A DNA stretch of 64,000 bases from Promethearchaeota archaeon (GCA_030603385.1 JAUVXW010000003.1:32001-96000); one strand, 5' to 3'; shown: positions 9,495 through 56,383, counted from the first letter of the stretch. The notes: a model not told the origin generated them from the sequence alone. Translations and numbers: made by a program.

Positions 9495-10688
9495 TTATAA
9501 CTTATTTTTTTGTATCCTCTTTAAAATATCTAAGTATTTTATAATTTCTTTAGCATCGCTTTTACCGATACAATAGTCTAACTGTTTAGTGAAGAATTGG
9601 CTCAAGATTTTCAATTGAGGGCTTGAAATTTTAAATTTATTACCCTCCTCAATTTGTTTATCTAGTATAGTATCCTTTACTTCTTCAATATTCATATTAA
9701 TTATTTGAAGTGCTATCCATTCGAAAACATCATCAATGTTTTCACTTGTTTTTGCTGAGGTTTCCATATAATATATTCCTAATTCTTTTGCCAATTCCAT
9801 GCCTTCTTCTGTAGTAATTTCTCTTGAATTACCTAAGTCTACTTTATTTCCCACCAATATTAACAATATGTTTGGAAAAGCTACTTCTGTAATAATATCA
9901 TACCATTTTTTCACATTTTCAAATGACTCTCGATCTATTATATCGAAAACTATAATACCTGCACGTGAATCAGTTAGATAATCTGGCCAAAGGCGTTGAA
10001 ATTGACTTTGACCTGCTAAATCCCAAATCATGAATCTTACAGAAGTTTTTAATTCATCAAATTGACATTCTTTTTTAGAAATAAAAGTTCCAATAGTAGC
10101 TTTATAATCTGCTTTAAATATTCCATGAACGTATCTTTGTACCATACTGGTTTTTCCTACACCACCATCACCAATTAAGCTCAATTTATAAACATAATTA
10201 GATGAAAGAGGTGCTTTCTGATAATATTCCATTTTATGTTTGATTTTTTCTACCTCAGTCTGTCTCTTAATCTTAGGCATAACTGGACTAACAGGCAACT
10301 CACCATCAATTATTCGTGCTACTTTATCAGCTGCTAAATAAGTATATGGAAAAATATCATCCACAAAAGCATTAGGGTGGAGGATAGACACTAATACATG
10401 ATCTGATCCAGATTCGCAAAAGATAAAACGAAATTTGTCTGTATCAAAAGTACCGGCACCAAAAGTACCAATATCAAAGTCTTGAGTTATTTTCTTAAGT
10501 ATTAATTCAACTAAGGCACTAAATGCTCCTACAAATTTTTTCTCATCTACATTCTCTGGATCTCGTGTTAAAATTTCTACTACTAATCCATCCTGTCCTA
10601 CTACAAGGACTGATATTAAGGATTCCCCTACTTCTTGCATGTACCATTTAAATAAAGCTTGTAATTTAGCCTTATCAATATATACCAT
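9495..10688 (-). CDS. Roadblock/longin-like domain fused to Rab-like small GTPase
   Basis: N-terminal VLVVGQDGLVV roadblock-like segment; GDGGVGKT, WDLAGQ, NKVD, ETSAK. Confidence 0.88.
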   Translation of the reverse strand: MVYIDKAKLQALFKWYMQEVGESLISVLVVGQDGLVVEILTRDPENVDEKKFVGAFSALVELILKKITQDFDIGTFGAGTFDTDKFRFIFCESGSDHVLVSILHPNAFVDDIFPYTYLAADKVARIIDGELPVSPVMPKIKRQTEVEKIKHKMEYYQKAPLSSNYVYKLSLIGDGGVGKTSMVQRYVHGIFKADYKATIGTFISKKECQFDELKTSVRFMIWDLAGQSQFQRLWPDYLTDSRAGIIVFDIIDRESFENVKKWYDIITEVAFPNILLILVGNKVDLGNSREITTEEGMELAKELGIYYMETSAKTSENIDDVFEWIALQIINMNIEEVKDTILDKQIEEGNKFKISSPQLKILSQFFTKQLDYCIGKSDAKEIIKYLDILKRIQKNKL

Positions 10689-19775: not shown

Positions 19776-20438
19776 TTAGTTAATCACTTTAAATTGAAGT
19801 TCTGTGCCATTTTTATCAAAACATTTAATATGGTTTATACTATATGGAAAACCTACAATAAAATGAAATCTGTTTCCTTTAAATACACTATTTAAATCTT
19901 GTAAAGAAGGGAATACATTTCCAGATGGATGTGAATGAATGGTTCCTTGATAATATCGATTTATTGGAATTCTACTCGGAAAAAATACTCCTGAATTTCT
20001 TGAAGTAATTGCGCCTGGAGGTAATATAAATTCTGAAAATACATTTTTATCCATTTCAAGGATTCCTAAAAATTCTTTTGGATGATGCGCCCGACATAAC
20101 GCTAAAAACCCCTCTAATAAATCCCTTTTTATTTTGACCGTATTTGATTGTAGATCCTCTAAAATATAAATAATTTCATTAATAACATTTAAAATAGACT
20201 TAGTCTTAATTATTTTCCAATTTTTTAAAGAAGTGATATCATTATTTAATTTTTTATAAACTGTCCCAGATTTAATAAGCTTAACTTTTGGTTTTTTAGG
20301 ATATTTAGAATAGTCAATTTCTAACATAATCCCCTTTATTAATCCAATTTTAATATGTGAAATTTTATTTTCAATAGTTTCAGCGTTAGGAAAATGTTCT
20401 ATAATTTTTTGATATTGTATCTCAATTTCTTTAATCAT
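19776..20438 (-). CDS. JAMM/MPN+ isopeptidase with N-terminal UBC/UEV/RWD-like domain
   Basis: PKEFLG..HSHPSG..PSLQD JAMM motif; N-terminal YPKKPKV..LKNW..SILNVINEI. Confidence 0.8.
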   Translation of the reverse strand: MIKEIEIQYQKIIEHFPNAETIENKISHIKIGLIKGIMLEIDYSKYPKKPKVKLIKSGTVYKKLNNDITSLKNWKIIKTKSILNVINEIIYILEDLQSNTVKIKRDLLEGFLALCRAHHPKEFLGILEMDKNVFSEFILPPGAITSRNSGVFFPSRIPINRYYQGTIHSHPSGNVFPSLQDLNSVFKGNRFHFIVGFPYSINHIKCFDKNGTELQFKVIN

Positions 20439-20522
20439 TATGTAAATATAATTACGATTTTAAAAGAATGTTTTCTATTTTGGAAATAATATTACTTATG
20501 GAAAGAAGTGAATGTGTTAGTT

Positions 20523-22421
20523 TTACTCCTCTAATTGCTCTATTTCTAAGAGAAAAAGATCTGCGATTGTAATCCATTTTTGTTTTGTTTCATCGTCTAT
20601 AGAGCTGTTCTCTGTTAATTCTTTTCCTTTTTTAAGATTTTCGAGGGCTAAGTCGAAATTTTTAAGCTCTTTATAACAGATCCCTAGTTTAATATAAGTT
20701 TGATGAATGTACCACTCTTTACTATCTAATTCAATAGCTTTTAAGAATTTTTGTGACCCTTCTTCATACTGTTCAAAATACATTAAAATTTCACCATACG
20801 TATCATGATACATTGCATTATCAGGAGCTTTTTCCACAAGATCTTGGATTATATTAAGCGATTCTTCTTTTTTATCTAAATATTGAAGCCAATAAGCTTT
20901 ATAATTAATAAGATCATTGTTTTGAGGATTTTTTTCAATCAATTCATTAATTATGTCTAAACCTGCTTTTACTTCTTGCATCCTTCTAAGAACAGACGCT
21001 TTTTTCATTTTAATATCAAGTTCACTTTCGGGAAATATTACTAACATCTCATTTAGTAAAGTCAATACGTCATCGAATTGATTATAATAAATTAAAATTC
21101 TTATCTTTGAATAGTATAAATCAAGATTCTCTGGATTTGATTCAATTTTTATATCAAGTTTTTTAATTTCTTCTTTATAATCATCTTGTAACTCTTCGAT
21201 ACTTCTTGATTGAAATATATCTATCATATCTTGCCAAATAATGCCTTCTAATTTATCATACGTCTCTTTAAATTCAACTTTTGCTTCAATTTTGTAAGCT
21301 AAATAGTTAATGTATTCTGGTAAAAAAATATGTAAGGGTTCTTTTAAACCAATAGAAAATAATATTTGACAAATATCTTCTAAGATATCATTTATGGTGC
21401 TACTTATATCAAATGATCTTGAAAACAACTTATTTAGATAGGTAAATTTGGTGATATGATCTTCTGTGATAGCTCTAAGCATTATTTCTAATCTTTCATC
21501 CTCCTGAAAGTAATAATGCATATCTGGTTCTACAATAATTTTAAAAAATTTAATGGGAAAAATTTGATTTTCAATAATTTCATCAATATAATAATCCACT
21601 TTAGATTCTTTTATTCCATAAGTATTCGAGAACTCCTCTACGGAAATATAATTAGGATATTGACTTGGGTGATTAATTGAGATAAAAAGTAGGATTTTGT
21701 CAAAATCTTCCTCATTTGTTAGCATTGCTTCAACTCTGGTATAATCCAATTTCAGCATATTGTTGAGTAACCTAAATTGTATGTCTTTATTTTCAATGTT
21801 ATATTTATTAAAAAATTTGATAGTTTTCACTGTAATCTCTTCAATTCTCTTACTTTCTTCCTCTAAAATTGATTGTTTATCTAAATCATATTCTTGTAAT
21901 ATTCTAGAATACTCTATTTTACCTGAGCGGGTAATTCTATATTTCTTTTCCTCTTTTTCTATAAACCCTTTATCGAGTAATAAGTTTATATTCTTAGACA
22001 GGGACGATTGATTGATAGAAAGAGGTTCTGCTAGGAAATCAGCCCATTTGCAAAAATTATTATTATAAACCATCCAAAGAATCCAATGATCGTAATTTCT
22101 TCTTCTTTTAATTATAGCAAGAGGATAACTTAGAGTTCTTTTTTTTTCTTTAGCTTGTGATAATTCAAGATATCTCTTTCTGCCTTCTGAAGTAATTTTA
22201 TAGTGCCCTCTTGAAATATTCTCAGCGAATCCTTTCCCCTTTAATAATGATAGATATTTTGAGAGAGTAGATAACCGAAGTTCAAGCGGTTTTTGAGTAA
22301 AATTAGACCACTCACATTCTTCATTATTATATAACATCCAAAGAATGATATGTTCAAAATTTTTTTTCTCCAGGGCTGGAGGATTATAAATCTCTTTAGG
22401 AGGTAAATTTATTCGACTCAT
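20523..22421 (-). CDS. Tandem winged-HTH + TPR protein (paralog 1)
   Basis: Two ILWM.YNN..C.W..S.LSK..L..KG..Y.IT..G repeats, a third HTH-like segment, C-terminal TPRs (YHDTYGEIL, YIKLGICY). Confidence 0.85.
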   Translation of the reverse strand: MSRINLPPKEIYNPPALEKKNFEHIILWMLYNNEECEWSNFTQKPLELRLSTLSKYLSLLKGKGFAENISRGHYKITSEGRKRYLELSQAKEKKRTLSYPLAIIKRRRNYDHWILWMVYNNNFCKWADFLAEPLSINQSSLSKNINLLLDKGFIEKEEKKYRITRSGKIEYSRILQEYDLDKQSILEEESKRIEEITVKTIKFFNKYNIENKDIQFRLLNNMLKLDYTRVEAMLTNEEDFDKILLFISINHPSQYPNYISVEEFSNTYGIKESKVDYYIDEIIENQIFPIKFFKIIVEPDMHYYFQEDERLEIMLRAITEDHITKFTYLNKLFSRSFDISSTINDILEDICQILFSIGLKEPLHIFLPEYINYLAYKIEAKVEFKETYDKLEGIIWQDMIDIFQSRSIEELQDDYKEEIKKLDIKIESNPENLDLYYSKIRILIYYNQFDDVLTLLNEMLVIFPESELDIKMKKASVLRRMQEVKAGLDIINELIEKNPQNNDLINYKAYWLQYLDKKEESLNIIQDLVEKAPDNAMYHDTYGEILMYFEQYEEGSQKFLKAIELDSKEWYIHQTYIKLGICYKELKNFDLALENLKKGKELTENSSIDDETKQKWITIADLFLLEIEQLEE

Positions 22422-22485
22422 GATATTTTCTTTAAAAGTCTTTATCTTTAGTTATATATAGTTTTTAATACTATATAAATTTCGC

Positions 22486-22540
22486 GAGCTTCCTTTAAAA
22501 TTCGAACTTCATTTGAAGTTCATGTAATAAAACTAAATAT
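22486..22540 (+). promoter_or_regulatory. Palindromic operator(s) plus BRE/TATA-like element (P1)
   Basis: GAACTTC-attt-GAAGTTC (22504-22521), preceded by a degenerate copy at 22486-22503; AAACTAAATAT 8 nt downstream. Confidence 0.7.
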
Positions 22541-22594
22541 AGGATACAAACTAAATTATAATTATAACAAAACTAAAAAAAAAGGTAAAAAAAA

Positions 22595-22663
22595 ATGAAA
22601 AAAAATGCCAAGAAAGGATTAATAAAAATAAATAATTACGCTTTTAGATATTTACTCAGATAA
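22595..22663 (+). CDS. 22-aa micropeptide MKKNAKKGLIKINNYAFRYLLR
   Basis: AAGGT SD-like site; ATG 91 nt from box start, as at P2/P3; T-rich tract after the stop. Confidence 0.5.
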   Translation: MKKNAKKGLIKINNYAFRYLLR

Positions 22664-22888
22664 ATTTTTCTTTTTCTATTTTTTAATTATTATTATTTAT
22701 CGATTTTTAAACTATTTCTTTCTATTATAAAATCTGTTAAGACTTTATTTTGCTTAATGCAATTCTGCGGGATAACTACATAAATGGGATAAAAAATTTT
22801 TATTATTTCAAGCTAAAATTTTATATTACAAAAAATCTAATCTACTATTAAATAAATTAAGAATATATGATTCCCACAAATAGATTCA

Positions 22889-23428
22889 ATGACTGGTGCT
22901 CAAAAATTTCGATTTAAGATTTCTGTAATAGGCGATGGGCAAGTAGGTAAGACCTCTTTAATTAAAAAGTTCACAAAAGGTTCTTTTAAGAAAGATTATA
23001 TTAAAACTATAGGTGCCCAATTCTCTAAGTATGAAAAAGAAATAGATGGAGATGAGATTCGGTTGATATTCTGGGATATAGCCGGTCAGGATGATTTTCT
23101 TTTTCTACGGCCTTCATTTTATAAAGAAAGTGGGGCAGCAATTATTGTCTTTAGCCTTGAAGAAAATGAGTTAGGTAAACGGAGTTTTGAGCATATAAAT
23201 AATTGGTATGAGAATATTAAAAAATTCTGTGGGGAAATACCAATAATTCTATTTGCTAATAAAGTAGACCTAATTGAGGAAGATAATCTAGATAATTCTG
23301 AATTTCAAAAAATGATAACAAAACATAGTTTTCTAGGATATTACTTGACTTCAGCAAAAACAGGGCAAGGTGTTCATGACGCTTTTAATACTCTTATTAA
23401 TGAATTGTACTATAAATCCAAGACTTAA
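22889..23428 (+). CDS. Rab-like small GTPase (paralog 1)
   Basis: GDGQVGKT, KTIG, WDIAGQ, NKVD, TSAK; no prenylation motif. Confidence 0.95.
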   Translation: MTGAQKFRFKISVIGDGQVGKTSLIKKFTKGSFKKDYIKTIGAQFSKYEKEIDGDEIRLIFWDIAGQDDFLFLRPSFYKESGAAIIVFSLEENELGKRSFEHINNWYENIKKFCGEIPIILFANKVDLIEEDNLDNSEFQKMITKHSFLGYYLTSAKTGQGVHDAFNTLINELYYKSKT

Positions 23429-23464
23429 CCATGAGTATTATAGGATTATAATATAGTACTATCT

Positions 23465-25987
23465 TTAAAATTCCGTTTCTAGTTGCTCAATCTCTGCTAA
23501 ATAGAGATTTACTATTGCTAGCCATTTTCTTTTTGTATCAAGATCACAAAAACATTTGTTTGTAAATTCTTGACCTTTACTAAGATAATCAATTGCTAAA
23601 TCATAATTTTCAAGTTCCTTATAACATATACCTAACTTTATATAAGTCTGGTTAATATACCACTCATCACTAGCTAATTCTATTGTTTTTAGGAATTCTT
23701 TTGTAGCTTTTTCATACTCCTCGAAGTTCATTAAAATTTCACCATATGTGTCATGGTATATTCCCAACTCGGGACTTTTTTTTATAATCTTCTCGATAGT
23801 TGTTAAAACCTTTTCTTTTTCATCTAAATATTGTAACCAATAAATTTTATTAAGTATGAGACTATTATCTTCGGGATATTTTTCGATTAAATCATTGATT
23901 ATCTCTAAACCTGCTTCAATATTTTTCATTTCTCTAAGAATATACGCTTTTTTAATCTTAAGATTCTTTTCCGCTTCAGGAAAATCAACTAGTAATTTGT
24001 CCAATATGGTTATTATTTCGTCGAACTGGTCAAAATAAATTAAAATCCTAATTTTAGAATTGTACCAATCTAGTGTTTTAGGATTTAATTTAATAGCATT
24101 ATCAATCGATTCTAGAGCATCTTCATAATTATTCAATTCTAGTAGGATTTGGCTTTTTAACTGATAATATCTTGCTTTATTGTTTTTATTTGATTCTAAA
24201 TTAATAGCTTTCTCGATATAACTTATTCCCATTTCTTTATCTGCTTTTTCTGCATCGAATGTATAAATCCTATTATAACCAAGTACTAGTCCCTTTAAAA
24301 CGAGAGAAAGAGGTAGTTTAGGATATATTTCTATTGCTTTATTTGTCATATTTAAAGCATTTTCAATATCTCCTAGAGTCATATATGAAAAAGCTAACAG
24401 AAAAAAATAAGGAGCATATATTTCATCTTCCTTATTAATAAGAGATAAATCTACTTTACTCCTTAAGAATTCTATTAATTCTTTATTCCGATTTAAATGA
24501 CAAAGAATAATTCCTTTAACAATAATGAGATCTAAATTCTTTATCTTCGATTTAGAATTAGCAAAAACTTTACCCAATTCTTCCAATCTTAAAGCTTTAT
24601 CATATTCTTTCGATTTTAAATAATCTTGGATCTTTAAATTTAATTCTTCTGGTTTAAACCAGAAAGCTAAGTATGGTTGTAGTACTTCTAATATTGAGGT
24701 ATCTAAATAATAATTCATTTCGCTTTCACCAATAAATTGATATTGAGAAGTTTTATAAATGTCTGATTGCAATATTTCAGGAATGTTCTGCCAAATAATT
24801 CCTTCTAATTTATCAGAAACACCAACTAACTTCTTTTCTTTCTCAATTTTATATGCTAAATAATTGATATATTCAGGTAAAAATTTTCTTAATGATTTTT
24901 TTAATCCTTCATCGAATACATTTTGGCAAGCTTCGTCCAAAATAGCATTTACAGTAGAACTCATATTTAGAGGGAGAATTAAATCTGAGGAGCCCTCAAA
25001 AAGCTTATTCAGGTAGGTAAACTTTGTAATATGTTCCTCTGTAATAATCCTAAGCATCATCTCTACTTTTTCATCTGATTGAAAATAATAAAATTTATCT
25101 GGGAGCACCTCTAATTTAAAAAATCTTATTGGAAAAATTTGGTTTTCCACTATTTCATCAATATAATAATCAAGAGTAGTTTTTTTAATTCCATATTTTT
25201 CAGAGAATTCTTCAGGAAACATATACTTGGGAAAATCATTTGGATGGTTAATCGAAAGAAGAAGTAATATTTTATGAAAATCCTCCTCATCCCTTAATAC
25301 CGGTTTAATTTTTTCATAGTCTAACCTCAAAACACTATTAAGGAATCGAAATTGAATATCTCTCTCACTGATTTCAAAACTTTCAAAAAAATTTAGTGTT
25401 TTTTGTGTTAGTTCGGTTATTCGTTTACTTTCTTCTTCTAATATCGACTGTCTGTCTAAATCATAATAAGTTAACATTTTAGAATACTCTGATTTACCCA
25501 ATCGAGTAATTCTATATTCTTTATTTTCCTTTATTACAAATGTTTTTTCCATTAATTTATTCATATTCTTTGATAAGGAGGATTGATTAATAGAGAGAGG
25601 TTCTTCAAGGAAATCTCCCCATTTGCAATAATTATTATTATAGACCATCCATAGGATAGTGTGATCATAGTTCCTTTTTGCAAGAATTACCTTTGGAGGA
25701 TAACTTAATTTCCTTCCCCCCTTCTTGGCTTGTCCTAATTCGTAGTATCTTTCTCTTCCTTTAGATGTAATACGATACTGATTGAATTCACTTTTCAAAA
25801 TATGCCCATTGCTTTTAAGTCTATTCAAATAAATAGAAAGTGTTGATCGATTCACTTTTTCTTTTAAATCTGACCAAGAGCATACTTCATTATTGCTTAA
25901 TATCCAAAGAATAATGTACTCATAATTGGGTTTGCCAATTAAAGGATTTAAAATCTCGTCAGGGGGGTAATTACAAGGTGTATCCAA
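23465..25987 (-). CDS. Tandem winged-HTH + extended TPR protein (paralog 2)
   Basis: Colinear with 20523-22421 plus ~200 aa of extra TPR-like repeats. Confidence 0.85.
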   Translation of the reverse strand: MDTPCNYPPDEILNPLIGKPNYEYIILWILSNNEVCSWSDLKEKVNRSTLSIYLNRLKSNGHILKSEFNQYRITSKGRERYYELGQAKKGGRKLSYPPKVILAKRNYDHTILWMVYNNNYCKWGDFLEEPLSINQSSLSKNMNKLMEKTFVIKENKEYRITRLGKSEYSKMLTYYDLDRQSILEEESKRITELTQKTLNFFESFEISERDIQFRFLNSVLRLDYEKIKPVLRDEEDFHKILLLLSINHPNDFPKYMFPEEFSEKYGIKKTTLDYYIDEIVENQIFPIRFFKLEVLPDKFYYFQSDEKVEMMLRIITEEHITKFTYLNKLFEGSSDLILPLNMSSTVNAILDEACQNVFDEGLKKSLRKFLPEYINYLAYKIEKEKKLVGVSDKLEGIIWQNIPEILQSDIYKTSQYQFIGESEMNYYLDTSILEVLQPYLAFWFKPEELNLKIQDYLKSKEYDKALRLEELGKVFANSKSKIKNLDLIIVKGIILCHLNRNKELIEFLRSKVDLSLINKEDEIYAPYFFLLAFSYMTLGDIENALNMTNKAIEIYPKLPLSLVLKGLVLGYNRIYTFDAEKADKEMGISYIEKAINLESNKNNKARYYQLKSQILLELNNYEDALESIDNAIKLNPKTLDWYNSKIRILIYFDQFDEIITILDKLLVDFPEAEKNLKIKKAYILREMKNIEAGLEIINDLIEKYPEDNSLILNKIYWLQYLDEKEKVLTTIEKIIKKSPELGIYHDTYGEILMNFEEYEKATKEFLKTIELASDEWYINQTYIKLGICYKELENYDLAIDYLSKGQEFTNKCFCDLDTKRKWLAIVNLYLAEIEQLETEF

Positions 25988-26061
25988 ATTTCATTCATTT
26001 ACCAGTAGATTATATACTTATAATTAATATATAGAAGGGGTTTATTTATACTTTTTGATTA

Positions 26062-26079
26062 AAACTCTAATTAGAGTTA
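26062..26079. promoter_or_regulatory. Palindromic operator upstream of wHTH-TPR paralog 2
   Basis: Perfect AACTCTAATTAGAGTT (26063-26078); AAAGTATAAAT 7 nt away on the minus strand. Confidence 0.65.
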
Positions 26080-26143
26080 AAAAATTACGGATGAAAATGA
26101 ATGTAAATATGTGAGAAAAAAAATATTATCTAAAAAAGATCTA

Positions 26144-26195
26144 AGACTCCATTCAGAGTTTACGATACTAAACTATATATTAAACCCTGCTCTAA
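26144..26195 (+). promoter_or_regulatory. Operator + TATA promoter (P2)
   Basis: AGACTCC-attc-AGAGTTT, N8, AAACTATATATTAAACCCTGCTCTAA. Confidence 0.7.
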
Positions 26196-26230
26196 TTATT
26201 CTTAATAAAAAAACAAAAAAGTGAAAAAAA

Positions 26231-26431
26231 ATGACCCAAACTTATCAAAAAATAATAATAGTGAAAAGACCTGAAGTTCAAACACCAATAGAAAGTGAAA
26301 TGGATGAATTACTTGGAGATTTAAATCCAAGATATTTTGAGGAAACTATTCCTTTTAAAGAGGCGATTGAAAGGGTTTATACCTCAGATATTAATGTTGG
26401 TTCTAAATTCAATTTCTTTAGTGTGTTTTAG
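26231..26431 (+). CDS. 66-aa microprotein
   Basis: Follows P2; shares VKR.E and N.[RK]Y[FL]EE.IP with 27226-27480. Confidence 0.75.
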   Translation: MTQTYQKIIIVKRPEVQTPIESEMDELLGDLNPRYFEETIPFKEAIERVYTSDINVGSKFNFFSVF

Positions 26432-26544
26432 AAATAATTAAATTTTTTTTTAATCTTATTTTCAGGTTGAATCTTATTTTCGCATATAAAAATTTTCTGT
26501 TTTTGAAATCCTTAAAAGCAAATTATTTTATCATTTATGCGACT

Positions 26545-26865
26545 ATGAAAAATTTTTCCTCTAAAACTCACTTAAGTAACTATCAATATGCCATAAAAAT
26601 TATTGAAGATTGTAAGGACTATTGGCTTCAAGATCAATTTCCGAATATTGATCAATTTCTATATGATTATGATTTAATAGATATCACTGGAAAAATCCAA
26701 GATTTTAAGTCTTATTATCAATTTAAGGATGCTCTGGATCATTTAACAAACTATAAATTCATCAGGATCTTAATAGATTCTAGAGCAGTTCCTCGAATTT
26801 ATAAGGGGAACAGAGATATTCCAAACAATTTTACTTATGAAGAATATTGGTCAAGAGATTTTTAA
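26545..26865 (+). CDS. Hypothetical 106-aa protein, possibly wHTH-like (start moved to ATG 26545)
   Basis: FKDALDHLTNYKFIRI helix-wing-like segment; protein-like composition. Confidence 0.6.
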   Translation: MKNFSSKTHLSNYQYAIKIIEDCKDYWLQDQFPNIDQFLYDYDLIDITGKIQDFKSYYQFKDALDHLTNYKFIRILIDSRAVPRIYKGNRDIPNNFTYEEYWSRDF

Positions 26866-27006
26866 AACCTGACGAGCTGAGTCTTTACGAATTTTTAAAC
26901 TATTCTAGTCATATGTTTTAAACTCTATAACTTCTTCTTAAGAATGAACTTATATTAAACAGAGACACATTTTAAGAAGAGATGAGGAGAGTCTAAAACA
27001 AGTCTT

Positions 27007-27058
27007 AAACTCCACTTGAACTTCGCAACGTTAAACTATAAATTAAACCTTGCTCTAA
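27007..27058 (+). promoter_or_regulatory. Operator + TATA promoter (P3)
   Basis: AAACTCC-actt-GAACTTC, N8, AAACTATAAATTAAACCTTGCTCTAA (near-identical to P2). Confidence 0.7.
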
Positions 27059-27096
27059 CTAAACTTATGAGAAAAAATATGAGTGTGAAAAATAAA

Positions 27097-27180
27097 ATGA
27101 AACAAGTCACAGTAAAGGAAGATTCCCTTATCGAACTTGAAGATCTATATATAATTCAGTTCCAAATTCGATATTTTTAG
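27097..27180 (+). CDS. 27-aa micropeptide MKQVTVKEDSLIELEDLYIIQFQIRYF
   Basis: GTGA SD-like site; ATG 90 nt from P3 box; in-frame ATGs at 27067 and 27079 are alternatives. Confidence 0.55.
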   Translation: MKQVTVKEDSLIELEDLYIIQFQIRYF

Positions 27181-27225
27181 GGTTTATTAATTTACAAAAA
27201 TATGAATTGAGGGGTGGTAGAATAA

Positions 27226-27480
27226 ATGGTTCAAGTATTAGTTAAGAGAAAGGAATTTGAGGAACCTTTTAAAATAGAAGATGTAATTATTTTAGAAGAG
27301 CTCCCTGCTATTGAGGAAGATTATACGATAGTGAGAGTAAAAGCAGAGGAGAAACCAGTTAAAAATGCTTTATCAAAATTATTGATGAAAGCTAAATATA
27401 ATGCTAAGTATTTAGAAGAGAAAATTCCTGTGGAAAAGGTCAGAAGAAATATTCACTACAGGAACTACGGAAATTTCTAA
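27226..27480 (+). CDS. 84-aa microprotein, paralog of 26231-26431
   Basis: GAGGGGTGG SD; shared motifs. Confidence 0.8.
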   Translation: MVQVLVKRKEFEEPFKIEDVIILEELPAIEEDYTIVRVKAEEKPVKNALSKLLMKAKYNAKYLEEKIPVEKVRRNIHYRNYGNF

Positions 27481-27531
27481 AAAACAATCTATCATCATAA
27501 CGCTGATTTAATTCATCCGACAAGCCGAAGT

Positions 27532-27587
27532 AGTAAAATCAGGGAGAAGTAAAATCAGGGGGAGGGGGACCTTTTTTATCCCCCTCC
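27532..27587 (+). other. 13-bp direct repeat plus GC-rich hairpin
   Basis: AGTAAAATCAGGG at 27532 and 27548; GGAGGGGGA (27561-69) pairs with TCCCCCTCC (27579-87). Confidence 0.7.
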
Positions 27588-27628
27588 ATTTGATATATAT
27601 TTAAATGATAAAGGGAGGGCGAAATAGA

Positions 27629-27721
27629 ATGAAAATTAAATATTTAGAGAGAATTGAAAGGATTAAGATAAAAAACGATTTAGAAGAGCATAAGGAGCTC
27701 ATTAATCGTATAATAAAATGA
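27629..27721 (+). CDS. 30-aa micropeptide MKIKYLERIERIKIKNDLEEHKELINRIIK
   Basis: Strong GGGAGGG SD; T-rich tract after the stop. Confidence 0.6.
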   Translation: MKIKYLERIERIKIKNDLEEHKELINRIIK

Positions 27722-27776
27722 TTAATTTTTTCAAATTTTTCAAAATAAAAAAAAATTTAATAGAGGTTGTCAATAA

Positions 27777-27872
27777 ATGAAAGAACAAAAAAAGGATAAG
27801 TGGAAATATTCGATGGGAAGTTTTCTTTTAAATCCAGAAAAATATAAATTTGGATTAAAAGATCTTAAATAA
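27777..27872 (+). CDS. 31-aa micropeptide MKEQKKDKWKYSMGSFLLNPEKYKFGLKDLK
   Basis: GAGGT SD; poly-T terminator-like tract after the stop. Confidence 0.6.
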   Translation: MKEQKKDKWKYSMGSFLLNPEKYKFGLKDLK

Positions 27873-28043
27873 AATTCAAACTTTTTTTTTTTATTTCAAA
27901 TTATTAGTACAATTTTCAATTTCGTACATTTTTCGATTACTTTTTAGCAGAAACAAAAATTTTATATTAAAAAATAACTGATCTTAGTTTGATTACATTT
28001 TTTTAAATAGAATATATACTTTTTTTATTTCTTCTAAGATTCT

Positions 28044-28601
28044 ATGAGTGATGAAGGTCGTAGGTTCCGATTTAAAATTTCCGTAATAGGTGATGGGCAG
28101 GTAGGTAAGACCTCTTTGATTAAAAAGTTCACTCAAGGATCATTTAAGAAGGATTATGTTAAGACAATAGGGGCACAATTCTCGGTGTACAATAAAGAAT
28201 TAGAAGGAGATAAAATCAGATTATTATTTTGGGATATTGCTGGGCAGGACACCTTCCACTTTTTACGTCCTTCTTTCTTTAAGAACAGCAAAGCTGCTAT
28301 TATTGTATATAGTCTTGAGGATAATAAACTTGGTAAAGAGAGTTTTAAGCATTTATTAGATTGGCACGAAGACATTATAAAACATTGTGGAGATATTCCG
28401 ATAGTTGTATTTGCAAATAAGGTTGATCTAGTAGACGAGGATAACTTAGACGATTCAGATATTAAAGAAATAGTTAAAGAACATAATTTTCTTGGGTATT
28501 ATATAACATCAGCAAAAACAGGGAAGGGTGTAATTACAGCATTTAATATGATAATTGATGAGTTATATAACAAGTTTAAAACATTATCTGTAGAGTTATA
28601 A
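28044..28601 (+). CDS. Rab-like small GTPase (paralog 2)
   Basis: G1-G5 intact; closely similar to 22889-23428; shared upstream AAAATTTTATATTA (22815 and 27956). Confidence 0.95.
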   Translation: MSDEGRRFRFKISVIGDGQVGKTSLIKKFTQGSFKKDYVKTIGAQFSVYNKELEGDKIRLLFWDIAGQDTFHFLRPSFFKNSKAAIIVYSLEDNKLGKESFKHLLDWHEDIIKHCGDIPIVVFANKVDLVDEDNLDDSDIKEIVKEHNFLGYYITSAKTGKGVITAFNMIIDELYNKFKTLSVEL

Positions 28602-28857
28602 GATTGAATTATCATTCAAAAGAAGATTTACTGAGCTTAGATAATTATTGATAATTCAAGATGCTTTTATTTTATTAGAGAGAAGTTTTATAATAAAAAA
28701 AATCTAATCTTACATCATATAAGATTTATTTAACTTATTATTCTAACCTCTATTAAAAATTCTATGATATTCAATTATCTCGAAATAAATTTTATTGAGT
28801 TTATTTTAATACTAATAAGCATTTTAGAATAATTATTGTTCAAAAAGATGAGAAACA

Positions 28858-29214
28858 ATGGAAGGAGAAGAAAAATATCAATGGGTAAAATGTAAAAATT
28901 GTGGATATTTACAGTATAAATCTCATTTAAGATGTTTAAAATGTAAAAATAGTAAATTTGAAAGGATAAACGCTTCAGGAACATGTAAACTTCTTACTTT
29001 TACTATCTTAAAAGCACCTCCTGCTGAATTTAGGAACAATCCTTCATATGCGCTAGGAGTTGTTGAATTTGAAAATGGAGTAAAAGCACTTGGGCAAATA
29101 TCAACACAAGATAATTTAAAAACTGGAATGGAATTAAAACCTATATACACTAAAATTTGCGATAATTTAGATGGAAAAGAAATATATAATTATGTATTCG
29201 AACCAAATTTATAA
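28858..29214 (+). CDS. DUF35 family Zn-ribbon/OB-fold protein
   Basis: CKNCG..CLKC; TFTI..PP..PSYALGVVEFENG. Confidence 0.88.
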   Translation: MEGEEKYQWVKCKNCGYLQYKSHLRCLKCKNSKFERINASGTCKLLTFTILKAPPAEFRNNPSYALGVVEFENGVKALGQISTQDNLKTGMELKPIYTKICDNLDGKEIYNYVFEPNL

Positions 29215-55852: not shown

Positions 55853-56383
55853 ATGTCTCATTACGATTACACATTTAAGATTCTTCTTCTTGGAGATGCA
55901 TCCGTTGGTAAAACATCGTTCACAAAACGCTATTGTTATAATATTTTCAACCCAAGTGAAAGATTAACGATTGGTGTTGACTTCCATGTTAAAACAATTG
56001 AATTGAATGAAACTAAAATAAAACTTCAAATATGGGATGTCGGTGGAGAAGAACGGTTTAGATTCCTTTTACCGACATATTGTTTAGGTGCCAATGCTGC
56101 ATTTCTACTTTATGACATAACAAGACCTTCTACTCTGGATAATATTTCAGAATGGATGACAATTGTCAGACAAAAGGGCGGACCTATACCAATAATGCTC
56201 GTTGGTTCTAAAATTGATCTTTCGAAAAGTTCTCGAAAAGTTCCAAGAGAATATGGTATTCAAATCGCTGAAAAAAATAACATGGCGAGTTTTGTTGAAA
56301 TTTCAGCCAAAGAAAATGTTAATGTTGATGAAGGTTTTAAAGTTCTCACCGAACTGACATTGGATAAGACTAATAATAGGTGA
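55853..56383 (+). CDS. Rab-like small GTPase
   Basis: GDASVGKT, TIGVDF, WDVGGEERFR, SKID, ISAK. Confidence 0.95.
   Translation: MSHYDYTFKILLLGDASVGKTSFTKRYCYNIFNPSERLTIGVDFHVKTIELNETKIKLQIWDVGGEERFRFLLPTYCLGANAAFLLYDITRPSTLDNISEWMTIVRQKGGPIPIMLVGSKIDLSKSSRKVPREYGIQIAEKNNMASFVEISAKENVNVDEGFKVLTELTLDKTNNR

Follow-up and report, generated by a model that had tools for sequence, protein, structure and literature searches.

Which partners do the dozens of small GTPases of Asgard archaea act with, and in what roles? This open question takes a concrete form at one locus in a 64,000-nt stretch of a Promethearchaeota archaeon genome (GCA_030603385.1, JAUVXW010000003.1:32001–96000; hereafter the window). 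Between positions 20,523 and 28,601, two modules stand in tandem, head-to-tail, between housekeeping genes. Each consists of a minus-strand gene for a putative regulator with winged helix-turn-helix (wHTH) and tetratricopeptide repeat (TPR) domains, a palindrome between back-to-back promoters, small open reading frames (ORFs) and a gene for a Rab-like GTPase (Table 1). On balance, and with modest confidence, we favor the view that the large protein is a transcription factor that controls its own gene, is gated by the GTPase and has micropeptides as co-factors, so that each module makes up a self-contained signaling and transcription unit of one Lokiarchaeia family. The evidence that carries this reading, and the alternatives to it, are set out below.

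Two tandem modules of a wHTH–TPR protein and a Rab-like GTPase

Module A comprises RegA, a 467-bp intergenic stretch and GtpA, and module B comprises RegB, a 2056-bp stretch with several small ORFs and GtpB. ORF positions, Pfam domains and paralogy bear out the duplicated tandem layout described in the initial annotation, including the clear paralogy of the two regulators (60% identity over 410 aa and 56% over 219 aa) and of the two GTPases. GtpA and RegB adjoin tail-to-tail because the modules stand in tandem.

Table 1. Features of modules A and B, with positions counted from the first nucleotide of the window
Feature	Position	Strand	Description
RegA	20523..22421	-	632 aa; three wHTH units, helical linker, C-terminal TPR superhelix; clade IIa
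Palindrome	22504..22521	.	Perfect, 18 bp, GAACTTCAttTGAAGTTC; 83–100 bp upstream of RegA; candidate operator
s22 (family PEP2)	22595..22663	+	22-aa micropeptide gene (MKKNAKKGLIKINNYAFRYLLR)
GtpA	22889..23428	+	Rab-like small GTPase, 179 aa, without C-terminal Cys; Pfam Ras 2.7e-41
RegB	23465..25987	-	840 aa, TTG start; RegA paralog, clade Ib, long form
Palindrome	26063..26078	.	Perfect, 16 bp, AACTCTAATTAGAGTT; ∼76–91 bp upstream of RegB start; candidate operator
s66	26231..26431	+	66-aa small protein gene; 55% identical paralog in the same genome, at G000 C36:21327-21533
132-aa ORF	26467..26865	+	Candidate (or 106 aa from inner ATG); open frame only, no Pfam match
Palindrome copy	27007..27024	.	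Degenerate, AAACTCCACTTGAACTTC; ∼200 bp upstream of s84; 3 mismatches to RegA site
s84	27226..27480	+	84-aa conserved small protein gene
s31 (family PEP1)	27777..27872	+	31-aa micropeptide gene; C-terminal ...LNPEKYKFGLKDLK-stop
GtpB	28044..28601	+	Rab-like small GTPase, 185 aa; 70% identical to GtpA

Both regulators match HTH_45, HTH_34 and MarR-type winged helices in their N-terminal part and TPR_1/2/8 in their C-terminal part, where RegB has ∼210 additional TPR residues relative to RegA. The HTH_45 match exceeds the Pfam cut-off (40.1 vs 25.5 bits), and the regulator TPR region as a whole gives Pfam matches to TPR_1/2/8/12/14. An AlphaFold2 model of RegA built from 23 homologs (predicted local distance difference test (pLDDT) 85) revealed wHTH-like units at residues ∼20–90, 108–178 and 237–306, followed by a helical linker and a TPR superhelix at residues 387–631; two winged helices, possibly three, had been counted at first, ahead of C-terminal TPRs. 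A second model, of residues 1–410, agreed with the full one (pLDDT 86). The wHTH units match HTH_45, HTH_34, MarR, Sso10a, Sta1 and ArsR profile models, and single wHTH domains were closest to MarR, PadR and a PhiH1 repressor-like protein in Foldseek searches (TM-score up to 0.62). The N-terminal 410 aa together had no Foldseek match at E ≤ 0.001, and the whole RegA model found generic TPR matches only. The best 50 Foldseek matches in the PDB were to consensus TPR, OGT, APC/C, MamA and Tom70, with no RRNPP(A) (Rap/Rgg/NprR/PlcR/PrgX/AimR) receptor among these 50. The winged-helix DNA-binding domain of archaeal and bacterial wHTH regulators (MarR/PadR/ArsR-like) is present in the regulator, and from such sequence matches we infer that the large protein is a transcription factor that binds DNA.

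Candidate binding sites lie upstream of both regulator genes. The two palindromes are related, sharing the half-site AACTyyA, and each occurs once in the 3.9-Mb source genome. The initial annotation had a palindrome common to both promoters: a perfect palindrome is indeed found in each, and the half-site is shared, but the two sequences are not identical. Copies of the RegA palindrome with three mismatches were observed 3 times in the window, vs 0.44 expected. We surveyed the upstream regions of 50 regulators and found the palindrome GAACTTCA-N2-TGAAGTTC at −87 to −102 in seven of nine clade IIa members, at −254 in an eighth (L055), and also in clade Ia. Clades IIb/IIc carry ATCATC-N5-GATGAT at −169 (13 of 17 members), and part of clade Ib carries TACTTTCAAAATTGAAAGTA at −165/−178. 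In clade IIa, the whole block TATATAG/palindrome/TTTAAATAG is conserved, and the palindrome therefore lies between two opposed TATA-like boxes. Because the palindromes match the clade in sequence and lie at a constant spacing from the start of the regulator gene, they are most simply read as auto-operators; clade-specific, position-fixed palindromes are the pattern that would be expected of operators diversifying with their wHTH proteins. Elsewhere in the source genome, the RegA palindrome has a single one-mismatch copy (GAACTTCATGCGAAGTTC, G000 C53:79966-79983), which is flanked by a 628-aa ORF and an ORF for a small membrane protein and may be a second target site.

The same protein could instead be a scaffold, an effector or a GTPase-activating or guanine nucleotide exchange factor-like regulator of the GTPase, with winged helices that contact proteins, as in ESCRT-II and RNA polymerase III subunits, and with palindromes that serve another factor. 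Weak whole-domain Foldseek matches of the N-terminal 410 aa to the multi-winged-helix proteins RPC62 and TFIIIC tauB (E 6e-3 to 1e-2) fit this explanation, and the cargo genes found in relatives (LVIVD repeats, transmembrane proteins) would suit a membrane-directed GTPase pathway. However, the single-domain and profile matches are all to DNA-binding archaeal or bacterial wHTH regulators, and the palindromes vary in step with the regulator clades at a fixed distance from the regulator start. We consider a scaffold improbable.

GtpA and GtpB are members of the Ras superfamily (Pfam Ras, E 1e-41 and 1e-39). Across 25 GTPase sequences, the motifs GDGxVGKT, T40, WDIAGQ, NKVD and SAK are invariant or nearly so; the catalytic Gln and the switch I Thr are kept, and the full G1–G5 set of the superfamily is present. 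The C-terminal Cys that is prenylatable in eukaryotic Rabs is missing from all 25, in line with what has been reported for archaeal Rab-like proteins (PMC4915359). The closest solved structures to GtpA are Rab23, Rab21 and a Thorarchaeota Rab (PDB 7EZB, E 5.6e-26). The source genome, in 58 contigs, contains 68 small-GTPase matches, ∼7 GTPases of this clade and only two regulators, RegA and RegB. In longer proteins, this GTPase is found in multi-GTPase chains, in CDC48_N fusions and in one TPR–GTPase fusion (P0153; 36% identity, one contig), whose TPR is only generically RegA-like (E 1e-4); this Rosetta-stone search of longer GTPase-containing proteins found no fusion of regulator and GTPase. 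Among proteins P0125-P0145, GTPases of the same clade (55–63% identical) are joined to CDC48 N-terminal domains (∼660 aa) in many Promethearchaeota, or make up chains with three to four GTPase domains (∼700 aa). The window also encodes two small GTPases of other clades, at 9723-10205(-) and 55868-56353(+), which are 28–37% identical to GtpA/GtpB; the latter gene lies within a second low-GC stretch (52–56 kb, 26–28% GC).

On one side, the module locus is flanked by a B12/radical-SAM gene, a thiolase gene and a gene for a JAMM protein, and on the other by an OB-fold ChsH2-like gene and methylmalonyl-CoA mutase. The JAMM protein, 220 aa and encoded directly downstream of RegA at 19776-20438(-), carries its Prok-JAB (JAMM) domain in the C-terminal half; no domain is assigned to the N-terminal 100 aa. 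Rfam gave zero matches across 20000–29000, and NCBIfam gave generic matches only, all below the cut-off. As PADLOC returned only wHTH/TPR matches, all sub-threshold, the module is not a known defense system.

Linkage and co-diversification within one Lokiarchaeia family

Is the arrangement specific to this genome? We surveyed 300 genomes of the phylum, 68 of which belong to the family of the window (f1), and found full-length regulator homologs in 60 of these 68, distributed over genera g1, g3, g4, g5, g6 and g7 and usually in several copies. Beyond family f1, the 300 genomes yielded TPR-level matches only, together with a fragment at a contig start (G097) and a distant 1052-aa form (G030). 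The broader label of an ‘Asgard signaling system’ is thus too wide for a module confined to one Lokiarchaeia family. A protein search retrieved at least 1274 regulator clusters, named in the databases only as ‘tetratricopeptide repeat protein’, ‘hypothetical protein’ or ‘DtxR-family regulator’, and orthologs of RegA with 67–84% identity are present in many Loki-type metagenome-assembled genomes (MAGs). Where records with the regulator are named, they are Loki-type MAGs (Promethearchaeota/Promethearchaeia) recovered from sediments of marine and cold-seep sites, and the stretch was itself detected in DNA runs from marine sediment and cold seeps. Two metatranscriptome runs contained only 11–13% of its words, and we draw no conclusion on expression from these small shares.

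We then mapped the regulator, the GTPase and other recurrent families at ∼110 loci with their flanks. Among 125 distinct regulator genes, 77 had either 10 kb of upstream flank or a hit, and a GTPase was counted as linked when it was ≥50% identical to GtpA and lay on the divergent side, on the opposite strand and without an intervening regulator. By this definition, 65 of the 77 genes had a same-clade GTPase divergent from them; given the density of this clade in the window genome, linkage of ∼1% would be expected. The divergent units vary in content, comprising micropeptide genes, the 84-aa protein, TPR-only proteins of 450–700 aa, small membrane proteins and LVIVD-repeat surface proteins, with the GTPase (58–94% identical to those of the window or to each other) most often the last gene. 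In trees, the GTPase subclades track the subclades of the divergent regulators and sister pairs match, as exemplified by a nine-member GTPase clade (97% support) formed by the partners of regulator clades IIb/IIc.

A conserved layout outside close relatives is not what a single recent, passive duplication would leave behind. The recurrence of the layout in many genomes excludes chance as its origin, and the presence of the regulator in most family f1 genomes, in multiple copies, with this degree of GTPase linkage and with matching subclades, argues that the modules do not stem from one recent duplication. The genes could still be passive neighbors that duplicate and travel together in a variable hot spot without mutual action. 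Indeed, the interval between the conserved thiolase/JAMM genes and the OB-fold/methylmalonyl-CoA mutase genes is a syntenic hot spot whose module number varies by genome (one in L049, two in the window, two to three in L045/L052), and the GC content of the locus is below that of its flanks. Yet the linkage has outlasted numerous rearrangements, in different genera as well as in several paralogous subfamilies, and the docking prediction and interface covariation described below point to interaction. Passive association is therefore, in our judgment, very improbable.

Other genes recur near the modules of relatives. A Peptidase_M3/oligopeptidase F (PepF-type) gene lies tail-to-tail with the regulator gene in at least 15 assemblies (L035, L038, L055, L061, L062, L068, L071-L079, L082, L087, L093 and L118; e.g. 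L035:5786-7576), and may bear on micropeptide turnover; near the modules of the window's own genome there is no such gene. Five to seven tandem TPR-only paralogs (TPR_12/MalT-like, ∼650 aa) adjoin modules at L057, L058, L088, L124 and L133 (e.g. L057:9913-19994), and one TPR-only cargo protein, L046:7155-9101, lies above the Pfam ComR_TPR cut-off (28.7 vs 26.5 bits). The recurrent neighbor families (regulator, TPR-only, small and membrane proteins) include no roadblock or longin gene, and the conserved module neighborhood contains no transporter gene.

Predicted docking of the GTPase on the TPR domain

If regulator and GTPase act together, how might they touch? We predicted the complex of full RegA with GtpA, GTP and Mg, each protein with its own alignment. 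The runs scored 0.74, 0.74 and 0.72, compared with 0.00 for the best of three controls; their contacts agreed to at least 56%, with a partner pLDDT of at least 85. On the RegA side, the predicted interface occupies the concave TPR face (residues 444–629), and on the GtpA side it comprises the P-loop edge, switch I (37–45), the interswitch, switch II (67–79) and residues 94–112. As modeled, this is the geometry of an effector that reads the nucleotide state. Covariation was analyzed in 64 non-redundant regulators, each with its divergent GTPase. Normalized mutual information was higher for predicted interface pairs than for other variable pairs (0.283 vs 0.234; Mann–Whitney p 4e-11), and several top-ranked covarying pairs join interface residues on both sides. 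At the predicted contact between regulator position 585 and GTPase positions 74 and 76, for instance, the residues switch jointly: E occurs with R/S in 34–36 pairs, and A/T with H/L in ∼20. The prediction and the covariation make it plausible that the GTPase contacts the regulator TPR, as the initial annotation had suggested.

Several points weigh against a GTPase-gated transcription factor, for which every line of evidence is computational. The complex score is the model's own confidence and not a measurement, and its calibration, with 58 of 80 solved complexes and 2 of 110 mismatched pairs attaining this mark, holds only roughly because custom alignments were used and the ligand rode along. 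A few subfamily splits, and hence few evolutionary events, account for most of the covariation, which also shares phylogenetic structure with the background. Conservation of the predicted interface was not above that of the rest of the TPR (p 0.83) or of the GTPase (p 0.47). At the level of the loci, gene order in the divergent unit varies, with the GTPase ahead of or behind the small genes. The exceptions to the linkage are mainly long-form clade Ia regulators (L041, L042, L044, L048, L050), which have no clade GTPase within 8–10 kb; in genus g3, only the 84-aa gene adjoins. Conversely, some clade GTPases adjoin TPR-only proteins without a regulator, e.g. on G000 C57. Pairing of regulator and GTPase is therefore not obligatory.

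Micropeptides and the proposed switch

The small ORFs all have a GGT/GAGG-type Shine–Dalgarno (SD) site 7–10 nt ahead of the start. The sole ORF in the module A intergenic region, s22, has orthologs at the same relative position in six other genomes: 26-aa ORFs of the form M[RK]KNAxKGLIKINNYGQNxxFRDLLK, all with GAGGT/AAGGT 8–10 nt upstream. Substitutions in this family are more frequent at third codon positions (178) than at first or second ones (107/88). In module B, s31 ends in the pattern NPxKYxFGLKDL, for which the entire genome, translated in six frames, yields only two matches. This PEP1 motif recurs between regulators and GTPases in many genomes, in 27–31 aa ORFs that are often present as two in tandem, or alternatively as the C-terminus of proteins of 66–95 aa. 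Relatives of s84 were found at module loci of genera g1, g3 and g4 (tblastn E 4e-24 to 1e-5), and s66 is weakly similar to s84 (E 5e-4). Judged by their sequence conservation, s22, s31 and s84 are clearly genuine conserved genes. The claim that tiny SD-led ORFs follow the promoters thus stands for these three, but the 33-, 132-, 54- and 38-aa ORFs had no detectable relatives in homology searches. None of the small proteins matched a Pfam, NCBIfam or PADLOC family. The micropeptides are basic and polar, with no hydrophobic signal or export segment, in agreement with the earlier remark that they lack clear signal sequences.

A few further observations concern the small genes. The only other PEP1-type ORF of the genome, MSKKVDKGLEATLADYFSNPKKYKFGLKDL at G000 C33:3448-3543(-), has no regulator nearby; a distant small GTPase is encoded 2.5 kb from it, at C33:315-905. 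The paralog ORF of s66, G000 C36:21315-21536(+), adjoins another pair of thiolase and DUF35-type OB-fold genes, the same kind of genes that flank the module locus in the window. A common origin of s84 and PEP1 seemed plausible by eye, since L051/L052 proteins have an s84-like N-terminus, but the hhalign probability is only 3–4% and we do not claim it. Finally, a G/C-rich hairpin at ∼27553-27595, with a 9-bp stem (GGAGGGGGA/UCCCCCUCC) and a U-rich loop, lies ∼80 nt after the s84 stop in DNA that is otherwise 26% GC. We rejected it (∼27561-27587) as a special structure: the stem is real, but the fold of 27485-27625 (141 nt) is unexceptional (z −1.63).

What might the small ORFs do? They could be leader peptides (upstream ORFs), whose translation, or stalling at the C-terminal motif before the stop, controls the downstream genes. 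Conservation is strictest in the last 8–12 residues ahead of the stop, each ORF has an SD site of its own, and both in the window and in relatives of clade IIa the ORFs precede the GTPase gene. The identical C-terminal motif, however, also ends proteins of 66–95 aa, the motif-bearing gene lies downstream of the GTPase in L035, L038, L061 and L062, two or three different peptide genes can stand in series, and neither an Rfam element nor a convincing attenuator structure was found. We regard this explanation as having little chance of being correct.

TPR domains classically bind C-terminal peptides. A peptide switch like that of the RRNPP(A) systems, in which the micropeptides or their C-termini are the primary TPR ligands and the GTPase is a regulated output gene, therefore deserves attention. 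In many genomes, conserved peptide genes of 22–31 aa, often 2–3 tandem copies of them, are the immediate divergent neighbors of the regulator, and the extreme C-terminus of the peptides is strictly conserved (...FGLKDL-stop; ...FRDLLK-stop). The PepF-type gene beside the regulator and the TPR-only cargo protein above the ComR_TPR cut-off would fit as well, and Bacillus subtilis PepF, when overexpressed, can degrade the Phr signaling peptide PhrA (PMC7055314). The RRNPP(A) systems further resemble the module in that one protein combines an N-terminal HTH with a C-terminal TPR-type sensor, in their adjacent small peptide genes with a conserved C-terminal part, and in the many paralogous receptor–peptide pairs per genome. 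The differences are nevertheless substantial. Strict-motif peptides lie within 1.2 kb of only 14 (PEP1) and 7 (PEP2) of the 125 regulators, the GTPase linkage being far more general, and in the predicted complex the GTPase occupies the TPR groove. Nor is the regulator a homolog of RRNPP receptors: it has a triple winged helix, whereas RRNPP(A) proteins have an XRE-type HTH (in Rap, a phosphatase-type 3-helix bundle), and its TPR resembles generic TPR folds only. RRNPP(A) peptides are exported, by a Sec signal or PptAB, and re-imported by Opp, whereas the peptides of the module have no export signal. The most constant partner in the module is a Rab-like GTPase, unlike in RRNPP(A), and the host is an archaeon, whereas RRNPPA has been described from Bacillota and from their conjugative elements and phages (PMC12700828). 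Membership in RRNPP thus fails on HTH type, TPR family, export signal and host, and we think a peptide switch of this kind unlikely.

Returning to the GTPase-gated transcription factor, we propose that the wHTH units bind the clade-specific palindromic operator, probably as a dimer. The operator would sit between two back-to-back archaeal core promoters, the regulator's own and that of the divergent transcript, which would supply the cognate Rab-like GTPase. The TPR superhelix would act in the manner of an effector, receiving this GTPase by its switch I/switch II face. From the docking and DNA-binding steps together it would follow that transcription of the module depends on which nucleotide state its own GTPase is in, which closes a feedback loop; in relatives, this control may extend to cargo genes for membrane/surface proteins and TPR-only proteins. 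The micropeptides PEP1 and PEP2, together with s84, would be third components, acting as TPR-groove ligands or as modulators of the GTPase cycle. Gating of the regulator by the GTPase is plausible on the modeled docking, and the peptides may plausibly take part; a dependence on GTP, the direction of regulation and the peptides' role are what we infer. A more specific version, in which the GTP form of the GTPase docks in the TPR groove of the DNA-binding protein and sets transcription while micropeptides with a C-terminal tag compete or assist, would be a three-part intracellular switch undescribed in any domain of life; we put it forward tentatively, as a possibility that we rather doubt.

In its mode of action, the module may be closer to a small GTPase that works through a TPR effector, the latter fused here to a DNA-binding domain. 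The prokaryotic Ras-superfamily protein MglA of Myxococcus xanthus acts via the TPR protein SgmX, an effector of its GTP form (PMC7519303, PMC7668184), which is the kind of relationship we propose for the module. SgmX, however, lacks a DNA-binding domain and works at the cell pole, on type IV pili, whereas the TPR protein of the module carries wHTH units; the partner of MglA is the roadblock GTPase-activating protein MglB, whereas the modules have no roadblock gene. The nearest published idea comes from Group 3 MglA, for which a neighboring receiver-like wHTH protein prompted the suggestion of small-GTPase input into transcription (PMC4316618). Actinobacterial conservons (CvnA-D/Mfp) and Group 3 MglA resemble the modules in being multi-copy and in combining a small GTPase with lineage-specific partners. 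These systems are bacterial and have an MglA-like instead of a Rab-like GTPase, and the conservon partners are a sensor kinase, a roadblock protein (CvnB) and CvnC, in contrast to the wHTH–TPR protein and micropeptides of the modules. Asgard Rab-like GTPases such as the Thorarchaeota Rab share with GtpA and GtpB a Rab-like G domain without the prenylation Cys, and in the LAMTOR1-Rab-like-DENN operon an Asgard GTPase has been tied to candidate regulators by gene order (10.1101/2020.10.19.343400). In the module, the GTPase is paired with a DNA-binding TPR protein and with micropeptides rather than with roadblock, longin or DENN proteins. According to Tran et al., MK-D1 GTPases can generally not be matched to regulators by genome layout (PMC10933270). 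We found no published description of the module in the literature, consistent with its having been noted as new; this expanded module of three parts is specific to its lineage and has no described counterpart.

For the Asgard small GTPases, these data provide one clade with a constant, co-diversifying neighbor, a specific docking model with predicted contacts (e.g. regulator E585 vs GTPase R74/S76), and defined candidate operators and short peptide candidates. If the GTPase indeed gates the regulator, this would be a direct link from a GTPase to a transcription factor in a prokaryote, and part of the Asgard GTPase expansion would serve gene regulation. With its many paralogous modules, each genome would in that case offer a natural specificity set of cognate and non-cognate pairs. 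If the three-part switch were also true, at least one expanded clade of ‘eukaryotic signature’ GTPases would act in gene regulation and not in membrane traffic, and signaling by peptides and TPR–HTH proteins would exist in archaea.

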